64,000 nucleotides of DNA from an uncultured Woeseia sp. GTDB lineage: Bacteria > Pseudomonadota > Gammaproteobacteria > Steroidobacterales > UBA11654. Under the pieces are notes generated by a model that was not told the origin of the DNA, made no database searches, and saw only the letters and a program-made list of their open reading frames with translations. The stretch covers positions 6,631 through 70,630 of the forward strand of contig CAZVRH010000002.1 of NCBI GenBank assembly GCA_964629335.1, written 5' to 3'. Below, one piece after another: positions 15,804 to 64,000 of the stretch (positions are counted from its first letter, which is position 1; every line of letters starts with the position of its first letter). The position numbers were made by a program, and so were the translations under genes.

Positions 15804-16151
15804 TGGTGGAGGCGGCGGGAATCGAACCCGCGTCCGCCAGCTATCCGCATTATGATCTACATGTTTATCCTTTTCTTTAAATTTAGTTTCATAGAACCGA
15901 AAGGAAGGTCACTATAAAACGATCCTCTGACTTAGAGTTTAGTAATTATTTGCAGAAGAAAAATAACTACGATCTTGGATAATTTTCATTAATTTAACCC
16001 TCCAAGAGAGGTCAGATTAATGCCAGCTGGATTAAGCAGCTAGTGCGTAGTTGTCGTTTGCAACTAATTTAATTCAGATTTTTTTAAGTGGATTCTGAAC
16101 CTCTACATGCACATAATGTTTCAACACCAACGTCGAAACCTTGACGCCCCC
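15804..16151 (-). ncRNA. ssrA: tmRNA (SsrA)
   Basis: On the minus strand the 5' end is GGGGGCGTCAAGGTTTCGACG. The 3' end is GGCGGACGCGGGTTCGATTCCCGCCGCCTCCACCA, a tRNA-Ala-like acceptor with a G3:U pair. The tag frame GCA AAC GAC AAC TAC GCA CTA GCT GCT TAA encodes ANDNYALAA* (16061..16032). Confidence 0.95.
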
Positions 16152-50806: not shown

Positions 50807-50883
<77 letters not shown>

Positions 50884-59967: not shown

Positions 59968-60053
59968 ATGAGTTCCTTGTAAACTAGTTGGAATAAATAA
60001 TGTATATATATCTTAATTCATTTAAAATGAAGCAACTAATTTTATAGTTATTT

Positions 60054-62771
60054 ATGCGACTAAGTAAAATTAAACTCTCAGGCTTTAAAACTTTTGTTGA
60101 ATCAACAACTCTCACTCTACCTTCAAATCTTGTCGGAATCGTGGGTCCTAACGGATGTGGCAAATCAAACGTTATTGACGCAGTTAGATGGGTGTTAGGT
60201 GAATCGTCTGCAAAGTATTTGAGGGGAGAATCTATGTCAGATGTTATTTTTAATGGATCGTCAACAAGAAAGCCTGTGAGCAATGCTTCCATAGAATTAT
60301 TTTTTGATAACACTGAAAAAAAAATTGGTGGTGAGTTCGCACAATACAATGAAATCTCGACAAGACGAGTCCTGTCTAGAGATGGACAGTCTCAATATTT
60401 TCTTAATGGAACGAAATGCAGACGAAAAGACATTACTAATTTATTTTTAGGCACAGGTCTAGGTCCTCGAAGTTACGCGATTGTTCAACAAGCAATGATA
60501 TCTGACCTTATAGAAGCTAAGCCCGATGAAATGAGGGTGTTTATAGAAGAAGCTTCTGGAATATCTAAATACAAACAAAAAAGAAAAGAAACAGAATCCA
60601 GAATAAAGAATACCCGAGAAAATCTAAACCGCTTAAATGATCTTAAAGATGAGATCGATAAGCAACTTAAACGTCTAAAAAAACAAAAAAATGATGCAGA
60701 AAGATATAAAAAACTAAGATTGAGAGAAAAAGAAATTGGTGCTGAAATAATTTACATCAAGATCATTGAGATCAATGATCTCATTGAAAGCAACAAGGCA
60801 GACTCAAGCAAATATCAGGATAACTATGATAACCAATTAACTAAACTTAGAAAAATAGAAGCCGATATCGAAGAATTAAGAGTTAAGAGTAACCTAGCAA
60901 ATGAAGAATTTAACAACAAACAAAAAGACCACTTTGAAATACAGGCAGATATCGCAAGACTTGAACAATCTATTGAATATGAAAAAGAACTAGCTTCACA
61001 AAAAACTATCAATGCAGAAGAGATTAGAATTGAATTGGAACAACTAAACCAAGAAGTCAATAAAGACGATCAAGAACTTCAGTCCATTGAACTAGAATTA
61101 GATCAAATTTCATCTTCATTTAATGAAGATAAGATGGAACTAACGAAACTATCCGATGAATTGTCAACAATAGAAAAAAGCTTTGAATCTACAGAAAATG
61201 ATAATGAAACTATAAAATCAGCCATCAACGAAAAAAACACTATTGTCGAAAAAGAAACAGTTAAAATTAACTTACTTCAAAAACAATTATCCAACCAAGA
61301 ACAACAAAAAATTATCATTCAAGATCTCCATCAACTTGAAAGTTCATTTTTAACATTAAAGGATAATTTAATCTCTCTTATTTCTTCAGTAAACCTCAAT
61401 GACTCTGAGCTCATTAATAATCAAATTAATCAATTTGAAACTGAATTAATTTCAATTTCATCAGCTCTGGGCGATACCGAAAAGAAAATTATAGATAACG
61501 AAAATGAACTGAGAAAATCAAAATCACTCTTAAATAAGAATTCTCACCAACTGGAGAAACTAAACTCAGATAAGATCAGTTCTGACGCTTTAAAAAATAA
61601 CTTATCCAATCAAAAAAACACTCTAACGCAAAAAATCAATAACTTATCCAATAAAGTTCAATCCCAAGAATTAAAGGTTGAATCACTAAAATCTTCAAGA
61701 GATGCAATGAATACTGCGATCAATCGACTTGAAGCTCAAAGAACTCAGCTAAAAAGCAGATCTCTTGAAATTACATTAAAAGCTAAAAACAATGAACTTC
61801 CAGAAGATGATTCAAAGCGAAAATTAGAAACCTTACTCAATAAAAGCCTGGTTCATGAAAAAGATCTAGATTCTTCGAGAAGGGTATTAGAAGAGTGTCA
61901 AACAAATCTTAGGAATTCTGAAATTGATCGAACAAATATCAATAGCGGAGTGAATCAAGCTAGAGAGGATCTCGAACATTTTAAATTAAACCAAAAAGAA
62001 TATGAGGTTAGAAAAGATTCTTTAAATGAACAATTGAAAAGTCAAGGCCATAACTTTGACTCTCTCAATAAAAATTTAGAAGATAAATCTATTGAACGAA
62101 ACGTCTTGAACCAAGAATTAGAAAAAACGCTAAAATCCATAGAGAGATTAGGTGACATTAATCTAGCTGCTTCAAAAGAATACGATCATGAGAATGAAAG
62201 AATGGAGAAGCTTAATTCACAATTCGAAGATTTAAATCGAGCACTGGATACTCTTAACGGAGCTATAAAGCAAATTGACAATGAATCAAAAACTAGATTC
62301 AACGAGACGTTTAAAAAAGTTAATGAAGGCTTAGAAAAACATTTCCCAAGACTTTTCGATGGAGGCAGGGCTTATCTGGAGTTAGAAAATAATGACGCTT
62401 TAGAAGGAGGTGTTTTTGTCATGGCTAGACCTCCTGGAAAAAGAAACAGTAACATTCATCTACTGTCTGGAGGAGAAAAAGCCCTCACTGCTGTTGCTCT
62501 ACTGTTTTCAATCTTTGAGCTTAATCCTGCACCGTTCTGCTTGTTAGATGAAGTGGATGCACCACTTGATGATACGAATGTTGGACGTTTTTGCGAAATT
62601 GTAAAAGAAATGAGCAGCAATGTTCAGTTTGTAGTTATCACTCATAATAAAACAACCATGGAACTAACCAAACAGCTTATTGGAGTCACTATGAGTGAAC
62701 CAGGGGTATCACGCTTAGTTTCAGTCGATGTGGATGAAGCTGTAGAATTATCAGAACAGCAAAGCACTTAA
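60054..62771 (+). CDS. smc: SMC-family chromosome partition ATPase, unusually short with no recognisable hinge
   Basis: N-terminal head KLSGFKTF...GPNGCGKSNVIDAVRWVLGE. C-terminal head LSGGEKALTAVALLFSIF...FCLLDEVDAPLDDTNV. Everything in between reads as coiled coil. 905 aa. Confidence 0.85.
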   Translation: MRLSKIKLSGFKTFVESTTLTLPSNLVGIVGPNGCGKSNVIDAVRWVLGESSAKYLRGESMSDVIFNGSSTRKPVSNASIELFFDNTEKKIGGEFAQYNEISTRRVLSRDGQSQYFLNGTKCRRKDITNLFLGTGLGPRSYAIVQQAMISDLIEAKPDEMRVFIEEASGISKYKQKRKETESRIKNTRENLNRLNDLKDEIDKQLKRLKKQKNDAERYKKLRLREKEIGAEIIYIKIIEINDLIESNKADSSKYQDNYDNQLTKLRKIEADIEELRVKSNLANEEFNNKQKDHFEIQADIARLEQSIEYEKELASQKTINAEEIRIELEQLNQEVNKDDQELQSIELELDQISSSFNEDKMELTKLSDELSTIEKSFESTENDNETIKSAINEKNTIVEKETVKINLLQKQLSNQEQQKIIIQDLHQLESSFLTLKDNLISLISSVNLNDSELINNQINQFETELISISSALGDTEKKIIDNENELRKSKSLLNKNSHQLEKLNSDKISSDALKNNLSNQKNTLTQKINNLSNKVQSQELKVESLKSSRDAMNTAINRLEAQRTQLKSRSLEITLKAKNNELPEDDSKRKLETLLNKSLVHEKDLDSSRRVLEECQTNLRNSEIDRTNINSGVNQAREDLEHFKLNQKEYEVRKDSLNEQLKSQGHNFDSLNKNLEDKSIERNVLNQELEKTLKSIERLGDINLAASKEYDHENERMEKLNSQFEDLNRALDTLNGAIKQIDNESKTRFNETFKKVNEGLEKHFPRLFDGGRAYLELENNDALEGGVFVMARPPGKRNSNIHLLSGGEKALTAVALLFSIFELNPAPFCLLDEVDAPLDDTNVGRFCEIVKEMSSNVQFVVITHNKTTMELTKQLIGVTMSEPGVSRLVSVDVDEAVELSEQQST

Positions 62772-62772
62772 A

Positions 62773-63270
62773 GTGGACAATGCATGGATACTACTAACTG
62801 CTATTTTTATAGTTCTGATCACTCTGTTAATTTATGAGAAAAAAAAGCGAAATGAAGCCAACAATCATTTAAATATAAATGAAAATTTTGTAATTAATGA
62901 AAACAAGGTTAATGAAAATGAAGTAATTAGTATGAGATTATCGCTTAAAGGTAGAACCATAACATTAATAGATGCAGTCGAACTCTTTAAATCAAAATCA
63001 ATACAAATGAACAATAAGGGAATCTTTGAAAAAAAAATAAATGATAATTGTTCTTATTTTGTAGCTAATCTTACAGAACCAGGGTACTTCAAAAACGACA
63101 AAAGTATCCACGGATTTACTTTCTTTTTTTTATCCAGCTATGAAATAGATGATAAGCGTCATTATGAAGAAATGAAAAAAGATATTTATGAAATCAATTC
63201 TATTTTTAAAGGCAAAATAAGGGATGACAGTATTTTCAAGAATAGTAAGACAGATGATAATCTCATATGA
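62773..63270 (+). CDS. zipA: Miniature ZipA-like cell-division protein
   Basis: N-terminal TM anchor WILLTAIFIVLITLLIY followed by basic KKKR. The C-terminal domain parallels the E. coli ZipA FtsZ-binding domain as I recall it (YFVANLTEPGYF vs FSLANMVKPGTF; GFTFFFLSS vs GVTIFMQVP). It sits directly after smc, as in many gammaproteobacteria. GTG start. Confidence 0.55.
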   Translation: MDNAWILLTAIFIVLITLLIYEKKKRNEANNHLNINENFVINENKVNENEVISMRLSLKGRTITLIDAVELFKSKSIQMNNKGIFEKKINDNCSYFVANLTEPGYFKNDKSIHGFTFFFLSSYEIDDKRHYEEMKKDIYEINSIFKGKIRDDSIFKNSKTDDNLI

Positions 63271-63357: not shown

Positions 63358-64000
63358 ATGAACGAAAACGATTATAGCAATCCGCAGCAAAGCGAAATGC
63401 CTTTCGCCATAGTTGATGGGGAACAACTTACTGAACTCCCTAAAGATTTATACATCCCACCTGTTGCCCTTCAGGTCTTTTTAGATGCTTTTGAAGGACC
63501 GCTTGATCTCCTTTTGTATTTAATCAGAAAGCAGAATTTAGACATTCTAGATATACCCATTGCTGATATAACAAAACAGTATGTAGATTACATTAATTTA
63601 ATGAAAGAGTTAGAACTGGAGTTAGCAGGAGAATATTTACTAATGGCAGCCATGTTAGCAGAAATAAAATCTAGATTACTGCTACCAATCTTTGAGGATA
63701 TTGAAGATGAGGAAGACCCAAGAGCTGAACTAGTTAGAAGACTTCTTGAGTATGAAAGATACCGAAAGGTTTCAGAAGAACTAGACCAATTAGATAGGGT
63801 TGAAAGAGATATCTATCCATCATCAGTGGAAACAGTGCAATTTGAAAAACCCATAGTCTTACCTGATATTCAGCTAAAAGAACTTGTGGTCTCATTTCAG
63901 GAAGTTCTCAAAAAAGCTGAAATGTTTTCCACACTTCATTTCACGAAAGAACCACTGTCTGTTAAAGAGCGTATGATGACAATTCTAGAAAAAATTGAAA
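63358..64000 (+). CDS. scpA: Segregation and condensation protein A (kleisin), 3' end outside the window
   Basis: My translation from the ATG at 63358 is MNENDYSNPQQSEMPFAIVDGEQLTELPKDLYIPPVALQVFLDAFEGPLDLLLYLIRKQNLDILDIPIADITKQYVDYINLM...GEYLLMAAMLAEIKSRLLLP. The frame is open to the window end. It is not in the ORF track because there is no stop. Confidence 0.85.
   Translation, partial: MNENDYSNPQQSEMPFAIVDGEQLTELPKDLYIPPVALQVFLDAFEGPLDLLLYLIRKQNLDILDIPIADITKQYVDYINLMKELELELAGEYLLMAAMLAEIKSRLLLPIFEDIEDEEDPRAELVRRLLEYERYRKVSEELDQLDRVERDIYPSSVETVQFEKPIVLPDIQLKELVVSFQEVLKKAEMFSTLHFTKEPLSVKERMMTILEKIE

Follow-up and report, generated by a model that had tools for sequence, protein, structure and literature searches.

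In the textbook account SMC proteins dimerise constitutively through the hinge, and several models also make it a DNA-binding site or a DNA entry gate. The locus described here raises the question of whether an Smc can do without it: within the window, i.e. the whole 64-kb stretch of DNA that was analysed, an smc gene encodes ATPase heads and long arms with no recognisable hinge between them. Is this a genuine and functional gene, how was its hinge lost, and what could hold two protomers together? The reading to which we give a probability of roughly 0.6 is that of a functional hinge-less Smc which dimerises through contact between its arm tips. The features on which the argument draws are the following.

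60054..62771, plus strand: smc, hinge-less orthologue of bacterial Smc, stop codon included (open reading frame, TIGR02168, Pfam SMC_N without SMC_hinge)
60054..60563, plus strand: N-terminal ATPase head half, residues 1-170, with Walker A at 60144-60170 and Gln146 (motifs, AlphaFold2, clade entropy)
60564..61382, plus strand: N-terminal arm helix as predicted, residues 171-443 (AlphaFold2 DSSP, motif position)
61383..61394, plus strand: predicted apex, a 4-residue turn SSVN, residues 444-447 (AlphaFold2; no hhalign homology to the hinge)
61395..62273, plus strand: C-terminal arm helices as predicted, residues 448-740, with breaks at 580-582, 664-667, 676-681 and 698-705 (AlphaFold2)
62274..62768, plus strand: C-terminal ATPase head half, residues 741-905, with the signature at 62463-62480, Walker B at 62535-62558, D-loop and H-loop (motifs, PDB, Foldseek)
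62773..63270, plus strand: short zipA-like gene, 165 aa, between smc and scpA (Pfam ZipA_C, 5e-6; the position is occupied in all relatives)
63358..64000, plus strand: scpA (kleisin), first 214 codons, running past the window end (Pfam SMC_ScpA PF02616, 1.3e-22)

An earlier note on this DNA had described a 905-aa open reading frame carrying both halves of an ATPase head, and both descriptions hold: the frame is intact, and all the ATPase motifs lie where they had been placed. Walker A (GPNGCGKSN) spans residues 31-39, Gln146 provides the Q-loop, the ABC signature (LSGGEK) occupies residues 804-809 and Walker B (FCLLDEVD) residues 828-835, with the D-loop and the H-loop also present. All these motifs are invariant in 74 aligned sequences. 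Within the hinge-less clade to which the protein belongs, column entropy is near 0 over the N-terminal head half, and the heads together with the ScpA-binding neck are nearly invariant. The protein scores 839.1 bits against the SMC_prok_B equivalog model TIGR02168 (cut-off 567.35), in two stretches; profile positions 1-435 are matched by residues 2-437, and positions 732-1164 of TIGR02169 by the C-terminal half (residues 450-892). Pfam SMC_N is found at 4e-56, the heads are matched in a PDB sequence search (e.g. 5xg3 at 1e-108), and Foldseek aligns the model with Smc head-ScpA structures at TM 0.8-0.9. Between the heads lies the long antiparallel coiled-coil arm typical of the family, predicted by AlphaFold2 as helices at 171-443 and 448-~740, with a heptad core occupancy of 0.5-0.9. 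The 905-aa protein is an orthologue of the bacterial Smc of the Smc-ScpAB condensin.

What this orthologue lacks is the hinge. SMC_hinge (PF06470) gives no Pfam match in it even at E<=1, and the same family is matched by the hinge-bearing relatives L015, P0121 and P0127. Approximately 290 central positions of the TIGR profile (about 436-731) find no counterpart, no hinge-only PDB chain is retrieved in the sequence search, and AlphaFold2 predicts a helix at 171-443, the SSVN turn at 444-447 and a second helix at 448-579 (mean pLDDT 78.8). The possibility that a degenerate hinge persists at the apex was considered and rejected: aligned by hhalign with the hinge regions of 57 relatives, residues 395-500 reached a probability of 3%, over a flanking arm motif only, while phmmer of the apex against PDB returned nothing meaningful. 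A zinc-hook-type apex was likewise discarded, as there is no CxxC anywhere in the protein; its cysteines are confined to positions 35, 122, 615, 829 and 847, with none between 122 and 615. The earlier note had reported both the undetectable hinge and the missing zinc hook, and had expected the apex near residues 400-500; that location stands, and the model narrows the turn to four residues. Thus Smc has no hinge, and its two arm helices are predicted to be joined directly in a bare helical hairpin.

A large deletion in AT-rich sequence, within a repetitive coiled-coil region, could also result from the collapse of low-complexity sequence during assembly, or mark a pseudogene in decay. However, the same length recurs on hundreds of independent contigs obtained with different assemblers, as well as in single-cell genomes, and the reading frame is open. 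The best 120 protein matches are all 905 or 906 aa long, at 64-100% identity, except for four entries of 758-857 aa which cover 84-95% of the query, and PF06470 occurs in none of the 120. Independent marine metagenomes, metagenome-assembled genomes and single-cell genomes have yielded over 100 protein clusters of this length (905/906 aa); the short form is found in 10 GTDB species genomes (L001-L010), single-cell genomes included, and the exact 905-aa protein is present on 8 contigs from at least three metagenomes. Moreover, dN/dS is ~0.07 over the whole gene, 0-0.05 in the heads and 0.13-0.20 in the apex core. An artefact or a pseudogene, which the earlier note had named, next to an SMC_hinge match, among the findings that would overturn its claim, was therefore rejected on the grounds of length conservation, occurrence in species genomes, purifying selection and repeated recovery of the same protein, and we regard it as barely credible. 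Given the near-invariant heads and neck, the fixed length and the intact scpA and scpB in the same gene cluster, there is little doubt that smc is here a functional hinge-less orthologue.

Comparison with orthologues, which the earlier note had proposed, places the short form beside hinge-bearing relatives from Woeseiaceae and Steroidobacteraceae, which are 1165-1172 aa long and carry, where Smc has its SSVN turn, a hinge of ~155 aa plus distal arm segments. The difference amounts to an in-frame central loss of ~264 aa, in which the hinge disappeared entirely and each arm gave up ~55 aa of its distal part. Since the deletion is symmetric around the apex, the two arm helices would now meet in the bare hairpin. 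The N-terminal arm is collinear with full-length SMCs up to residue 411 at least, and the C-terminal arm from residue 542 at the latest, where the anchor VESLKSS (542-548) corresponds to residue 810 of a 1169-aa relative. The motif E..[KR]I..L[EQ].Q, at residues 401-411, starts at 401 in hinge-less and full-length forms alike. A MAFFT alignment and simple length arithmetic (1003 - 97 = 906) had initially suggested descent from short-arm hinge-bearing SMCs (P0127, 1003 aa; P0136, 990 aa). This origin was rejected because the residue-401 motif, shared by the hinge-less clade and full-length SMCs, is absent from the short-arm forms.

The gene order pnp-dksA-queF-smc-zipA is common to the hinge-less clade and its hinge-bearing relatives, and the dksA-queF-smc-zipA part was also found in L036 and L038. 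A rough neighbour-joining tree recovers the clade as monophyletic among the SMCs of Gammaproteobacteria. Taken together, gene order and tree indicate that smc occupies the orthologous position and descends from a hinge-bearing Smc.

Naturally hinge-less SMCs have been reported once before, in 2025, for another phylum: abundant oceanic proteins from the Tara OM-RGC catalogue were assigned to Actinomycetes, branch with actinobacterial SMCs and are apparently the only SMC in their genomes (Environ Microbiome 2025;20:65, PMC12153180). The clade described here has gammaproteobacterial closest hinge-bearing homologues (Woeseiaceae and Steroidobacteraceae, at 40-53% identity) and shares their smc-zipA synteny, and all its genome records are gammaproteobacterial, with the labels Woeseia/Woeseiaceae or Gammaproteobacteria; on this comparative evidence, its hinge loss appears to be independent of the actinobacterial one. 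Furthermore, a second and rare gammaproteobacterial hinge-less lineage, related to SMCs of the Sedimenticola/Thiodiazotropha type, is represented by three sequences (P0244, 1016 aa; P0270, 1018 aa; P0271). In this lineage the hinge has been excised and AlphaFold2 predicts a bare hairpin with the turn at 498-502, but the arms keep their full length (~328 aa). Its gene lies in an smc-zipA context at a locus of 36% GC, and the apex motif LHDCE is common to two members. The three cases suggest that the hinge has been lost several times, in part at least among low-GC marine lineages. That loss of the hinge from a sole Smc is a recurrent and convergent event, shared by this low-GC pelagic gammaproteobacterial clade, the second gammaproteobacterial lineage and the published actinobacterial clade, is a proposal to which we give slightly less than even odds.

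The genes around smc indicate which complex the protein serves. The earlier note had placed scpA 590 bp downstream, and the distance is confirmed at 587 nt (start at 63358); the zipA-like gene lying in between, which continues the gammaproteobacterial smc-zipA arrangement, had been overlooked. On the source contigs scpA encodes 270 aa and scpB (202 aa) comes next; both match their Pfam families and are conserved in the clade. Kleisin and kite partners are hence both encoded, which supports the earlier suggestion that the complex is still in use.

Heads joined by a hinge-less coiled-coil hairpin recall Rad50, SbcC and RecN, and the protein could have acquired a new function, e.g. that of a RecN- or Rad50-like repair tether, leaving the chromosome to be organised by MukBEF, MksBEF or a second Smc. 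Such a change of role is improbable in view of the gene's orthologous position, with scpA and scpB in the same cluster, and of the family models: the Smc equivalog cut-off is exceeded, whereas Rad50 models reach 54-67 bits against cut-offs of 1000-1087 and RecN models 27.3 bits against 418 and 22.1 bits against 407.85. Within the window no paralogue came to light: phmmer of Smc against all open reading frames of at least 100 aa in the 64 kb recovers only Smc itself, and no Mre11/SbcD-type gene was among the genes called beside smc on the source contigs; for relatives, gene neighbourhoods were examined within +/-10 kb around the gene. For the published actinobacterial hinge-less SMCs, no regular SMC was found beside them in single-cell genomes (PMC12153180).

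The preferred reading therefore starts from the Smc-ScpAB of a low-GC pelagic gammaproteobacterial lineage, in which the ATP-gated head/kleisin module would still clamp and move DNA. ScpA would link the two protomers by binding one at its neck and the other at its cap, and ATP-dependent head engagement and side-by-side alignment of the arms may also join them. The most likely substitute for the hinge is a hydrophobic contact of loose specificity, of the four-helix-bundle type, in which the two apex hairpins meet. A RecN- or Rad50-like pairing at the apex, as the earlier note had suggested, would have to do without a zinc hook. The preferred scheme fits the experimental finding that B. subtilis Smc does not depend on a particular fold in its dimerisation domain (PMC5344682), and, drawing on both, neither DNA binding by the hinge nor DNA entry through it would be needed in this lineage.

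The composition of the apex bears on the contact itself. In favour, its hydrophobic fraction is 0.35-0.38, where the arm averages 0.26, and its charge is the lowest of the whole arm; both tendencies are seen across 17 divergent representatives. There is also a surplus of non-core hydrophobic residues at 400-462 (z up to 2.9), but it is confined to the N-terminal strand, a one-sidedness which speaks against a contact. The segment 436-465 is also the least conserved of the protein (entropy 1.7-2.05 within the clade), and variability of this degree would be unusual for a specific interface. Dimerisation by apex contact, taken on its own, is accordingly put forward as tentative, at rather less than an even chance.

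If the apices do not touch, ScpA and ATP would be all that joins the protomers, at their heads, as an open V or as loosely aligned rods; the complex would then act as an ATP-gated DNA clamp or as a translocator built on the kleisin ring, and the arms would enclose no compartment. The intact ScpA and ScpB favour this arrangement, which also agrees with an apex that varies more and is less constrained than any other segment and has no Cys pair, basic patch or similarity to any known dimerisation module. The raised hydrophobicity and depleted charge retained across divergent representatives argue against it, as do the strict length and an apex dN/dS which still denotes constraint. Furthermore, hinge mutants giving a single-armed B. 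subtilis SMC, in work by Hirano and Hirano from 2002, reportedly lose normal DNA interaction. We thus consider head-end joining unlikely, and retain apex contact in the preferred reading.

If hinge loss is indeed recurrent and convergent, Smc-ScpAB can organise chromosomes with just a helical hairpin at the arm tip, and the core SMC motor would need the hinge neither for dimerisation nor for DNA binding nor as a DNA gate. The only recognisable Smc in the 64-kb window, from a widespread marine lineage, has its hinge swapped for a 4-residue turn under strong purifying selection, with intact kleisin and kite genes alongside. Such proteins would offer natural minimal SMCs for mechanistic work, the 905-aa form being a compact candidate with which to find out at which steps DNA loading and translocation depend on the hinge.

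With canonical Smc, as in B. subtilis and the 1165-1172-aa orthologues (L011-L035), the protein shares the split ABC head with all its motifs, the neck and cap, the long antiparallel arm and the ScpA/ScpB partners, and with the 1165-1172-aa relatives also its chromosomal neighbourhood. The canonical form differs in having a hinge, ~264 aa more and arms each ~55 aa longer, in place of the 4-residue apex turn. Rad50/SbcC and RecN likewise combine heads with an antiparallel coiled-coil hairpin and dimerise, where this is known, at the coiled-coil tip. However, the CxxC zinc hook of Rad50/SbcC is absent here, RecN is a protein of about 550 aa compared with 905 aa, and the partner genes are a kleisin and a kite, with no nuclease, the neighbours being zipA, scpA and scpB.

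The closest experimental parallel is provided by engineered B. subtilis Smc(Zh) and Mini-Smc, which lack the hinge fold and/or have shortened arms and still support chromosome segregation, showing that the hinge fold itself is dispensable in that species (Buermann et al. 2017, PMC5344682). The natural Smc is a counterpart to these hinge replacements, with the difference that the engineered proteins still have a module devoted to dimerisation (hinge or zinc hook), whereas no recognisable one is found here. Functional engineered arms fall into windows of 253-267 and 321-373 aa, and arms of 270-320 aa are non-functional (PMC5344682). By the head/hinge bookkeeping of that study the arm here measures ~273-289 aa, outside the functional windows and within the range that fails in engineered B. 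subtilis Smc, an observation which runs against our best explanation; no claim is made on arm length in relation to the 91-aa periodicity described there.

Finally, the oceanic clade of PMC12153180 resembles the present one in its SMC heads and coiled coil with neither hinge nor CxxC, and in its origin from marine plankton metagenomes, while by the description in that paper it is set apart as actinobacterial rather than gammaproteobacterial. That report comes without operon context, deletion anatomy or selection analysis; all three are given for the clade described here, and what is new is thus an independent lineage together with the anatomy of its deletion, its operon context and the evidence of selection.

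The open reading frame at 60054-62771 (+) is intact, and the protein it encodes carries the ATPase head motifs at the places stated in the earlier note.

Features of smc and its surroundings in the window (residue numbers refer to the 905-aa protein)
60054-62771, +: smc, intact, 905 aa
Residues 31-39: Walker A, GPNGCGKSN (motif inspection)
Residue 146: Q-loop, Gln146 (motif inspection)
Residues 804-809: signature, LSGGEK (motif inspection)
Residues 828-835: Walker B, FCLLDEVD (motif inspection)
D-loop: APLDD (motif inspection)
Residue 864: H-loop, His864 (motif inspection)
Before residue 171: N-terminal head half (AlphaFold2)
Residues 171-443: N-arm, a single unbroken helix (AlphaFold2)
Residues 444-447, nt 61383-61394: apex turn of 4 residues, SSVN (AlphaFold2)
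Residues 448-579: return helix (AlphaFold2)
Later arm helices, with breaks at 580-582, 664-667, 676-681 and 698-705 (AlphaFold2)
After the last arm helices: C-terminal head half (AlphaFold2)
59984-60349, -: antisense ORF overlapping smc, 121 aa (ORF call)
60824-61060, -: antisense ORF overlapping smc, 78 aa (ORF call)
62773-63270: zipA-like gene directly after smc, 165 aa (ZipA_C, weak)
From 63358: scpA, continuing past the window end (PF02616, 1.3e-22)

Both antisense ORFs are most likely spurious products of AT-rich coiled-coil coding sequence. The hmmscan search proposed in the earlier note returned SMC_N over residues 3-886 (4e-56) and no SMC_hinge (PF06470) match even at E<=1. TIGR02168, the NCBIfam equivalog of bacterial Smc, reached 839 bits (cut-off 567), with the match split in two stretches. 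Residues 2-437 correspond to profile positions 1-435, and the C-terminal half (450-892) aligns with the sister model TIGR02169 at positions 732-1164, so that about 290 central profile positions are absent. Among PDB sequences, Smc heads and arms were matched (best example 5xg3, 1e-108) and no hinge chain was, while apex residues 395-500 could be matched neither to any PDB entry nor, by hhalign (probability 3%), to the hinge regions from 57 relatives. CxxC is likewise missing, the only cysteines being at 35, 122, 615, 829 and 847. The absence of both hinge and zinc hook claimed in the earlier note is thus borne out. In Foldseek, the predicted model groups with prokaryotic Smc head, joint and ScpA structures (target-normalised TM 0.74-0.9). 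Apart from the missing hinge, all features that define an Smc are present, and the protein is one by descent too.

An assembly deletion or a pseudogene, the alternative raised in the earlier note, is ruled out by length-conserved homologues, single-cell genomes, repeated contigs and dN/dS. The 120 best matches in a collection of 5.8 billion proteins, drawn from ENA, JGI, NCBI, Tara and Logan assemblies, share 64-100% identity with the query; all are 905 or 906 aa long except four shorter entries (758-857 aa, 84-95% of the query covered), and none contains PF06470. The short form also occurs at 60-83% identity in ten GTDB species-representative genomes (loci L001-L010), including the single-cell genomes AG-447-O13 and AG-435-A22, and at least 3 JGI metagenomes contain the exact protein, on 8 contigs in all and with identical gene order every time. 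Purifying selection was quantified by the Nei-Gojobori method on two pairs unsaturated at synonymous sites (dS ~0.45-0.48), giving dN/dS of 0.07 for the whole gene, 0-0.05 for the heads, 0.06-0.13 for the arms and 0.13-0.20 for the apex core (425-465).

Homologues at 40-53% identity (L011-L035, labelled Woeseiaceae, Woeseia, Steroidobacteraceae or Gammaproteobacteria) have a full-length Smc of 1165-1172 aa, with the Pfam hinge at about residues 524-621 where tested. When 1.84 billion cluster representatives were searched, the clade without a hinge came out as one cluster at 50% identity (P0092), and 145 of the next 149 matches are of about 1150-1220 aa. The window gene order, rbfA-truB-rpsO-pnp-dksA(-)-queF(-)-smc-zipA, recurs at the hinge-bearing smc of loci L036 and L038; the 905-aa gene is therefore an orthologue, not a paralogue. 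Hinge-less loci have a GC content of 31-37% against 45-65% in hinge-bearing relatives, and a rough neighbour-joining tree puts a long stem beneath the clade; both observations fit a pelagic lineage that is derived and has shifted towards AT.

The motif E..[KR]I..L[EQ].Q at residue 401 is common to the hinge-less clade and to full-length gammaproteobacterial SMCs (L011, L015, L018, P0281, P0290), and the N-arm is collinear with theirs. In the C-arm, the anchor VESLKSS (residue 542) has its counterpart at residue 810 of L015 (1169 aa), and the sum i+j of positions paired across the turn is ~891, compared with ~1155-1159 in L015, so the loss is symmetric about the apex. It totals ~264 aa, made up of a ~155-aa hinge and ~55 aa from the distal part of each arm. 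Descent from the hinge-bearing, short-arm proteins P0127 (1003 aa; L036 5001-8012) and P0136 (990 aa; L038 3027-5999), whose loci are syntenic with the window, was rejected, as both lack the residue-401 motif and therefore represent separate arm-shortening events. Each of their arms is ~81-85 aa shorter than in the 1169-aa form, a difference near the 91-aa periodicity that PMC5344682 describes for functional Mini-Smc. P0173 (1071 aa) is likewise shortened, with a weak hinge match (19.1 bits; cut-off 22.5).

The AlphaFold2 model, built with a 74-sequence alignment, has a mean pLDDT of 78.8. As the two head halves must meet, the arm helices are antiparallel and, with a turn of four residues, the predicted apex consists of a helical hairpin alone, lacking any globular domain. 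The N-arm patch ARLEQSIEYEKELAS (residues 297-315, window 60942-60998) is highly conserved, with E304 invariant in both the 74- and 46-sequence alignments, and faces the C-arm helix break at 580-582 (61791-61799; Pro584) in the model; together they form a predicted conserved coiled-coil discontinuity.

All parts of the head/kleisin/kite module are present and under constraint, and the hinge is gone. On the source contigs scpA (270 aa) is followed by scpB (202 aa), the order smc-zipA'-scpA-scpB is kept across the clade, the L002 ScpB matches PF04079 at 1.8e-47, and neck residues 171-215, which bind the ScpA N-terminus, are near-invariant (entropy 0.04-0.26). Judged on genes and conservation, this evidence indicates a Smc-ScpAB complex still in use, in agreement with the earlier note. 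ATP would still sandwich two heads and ScpA would still link the two Smc molecules, binding one at its neck and the other at its cap, so that a 2:1:2 holocomplex could assemble without a hinge.

What happens at the arm tips was weighed from apex composition, measured over 17 representatives below 90% identity, and from the experimental precedent that it makes no difference in B. subtilis which fold the Smc dimerisation domain has (PMC5344682). On this basis we tentatively favour, at a probability of about 0.4, a loosely specified hydrophobic hairpin-hairpin contact combined with arm alignment. The last ~40 residues before the turn are the arm's most hydrophobic part (0.35-0.38, mean 0.26) and its least charged, hydrophobic side chains outside the a/d heptad core are in excess there (z up to 2.9), comparably elsewhere only at the joint near the head, and length is strictly conserved; all this was counted for tip contact. 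Two observations argue against a specific interface: variability along the protein peaks at residues 436-465 (entropy 1.7-2.05), and the non-core excess is confined to one strand. A complex joined at the heads only, with arm tips apart, is the less probable alternative. The arm measures ~273 aa as helix, or ~289 aa by the head/hinge bookkeeping of PMC5344682, and falls outside both length windows (253-267 and 321-373 aa) in which Smc engineered in B. subtilis is functional (PMC5344682).

Among the neighbours, the zipA-like product is 165 aa long versus 211-256 aa in hinge-bearing relatives, ZipA_C scores 26.8 bits versus 106 in L036, and ligA, which follows zipA in L005 and L038, no longer does so in the window; ZipA may have been reduced in parallel with Smc. 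In MAG BPCL01000001 (L001 9219-9510) the scpA frame lacks its first ~30 codons, probably a sequence error of the MAG; scpA is intact (270-276 aa) in L002-L009 and the source contigs. The only Rfam matches at gathering threshold in the window are a tmRNA gene (15804-16151, -; 204 bits) and a tRNA gene (50807-50880, +).

A check of the outliers in the 1.84-billion-representative search led to another gammaproteobacterial lineage that has independently lost the Smc hinge, made up of P0244 (1016 aa; L037 5001-8051), P0270 (1018 aa) and P0271. Its closest relatives are SMCs of the Sedimenticola/Thiodiazotropha type, its arms remain full-length, its locus has 36% GC, and AlphaFold2 again predicts a bare hairpin, with the turn at 498-502. 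P0244 and P0271 have the apex motif LHDCE in common.

The earlier note's reading is supported, and the finding is real. Identity with Rad50/SbcC is rejected, since the window Smc has no zinc hook and HMM scores far below the cut-offs, and RecN is rejected on HMM scores. Natural hinge loss has been published before, for another phylum: an abundant oceanic clade of the Tara OM-RGC catalogue, assigned to Actinomycetes, lacks hinge and CxxC and has no regular SMC alongside it in GORG-Tropics single-cell genomes (Environ Microbiome 2025;20:65, PMC12153180), the sole report of natural hinge-less SMCs retrieved by a full-text literature search. The window clade, set apart from it by taxonomic assignment rather than direct sequence comparison, is gammaproteobacterial and therefore represents an independent loss. 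What is added to that report is an independent lineage in which the deletion is defined and symmetric, synteny shows orthology, the ScpAB operon is intact and purifying selection has been quantified, together with evidence of recurrent hinge loss.
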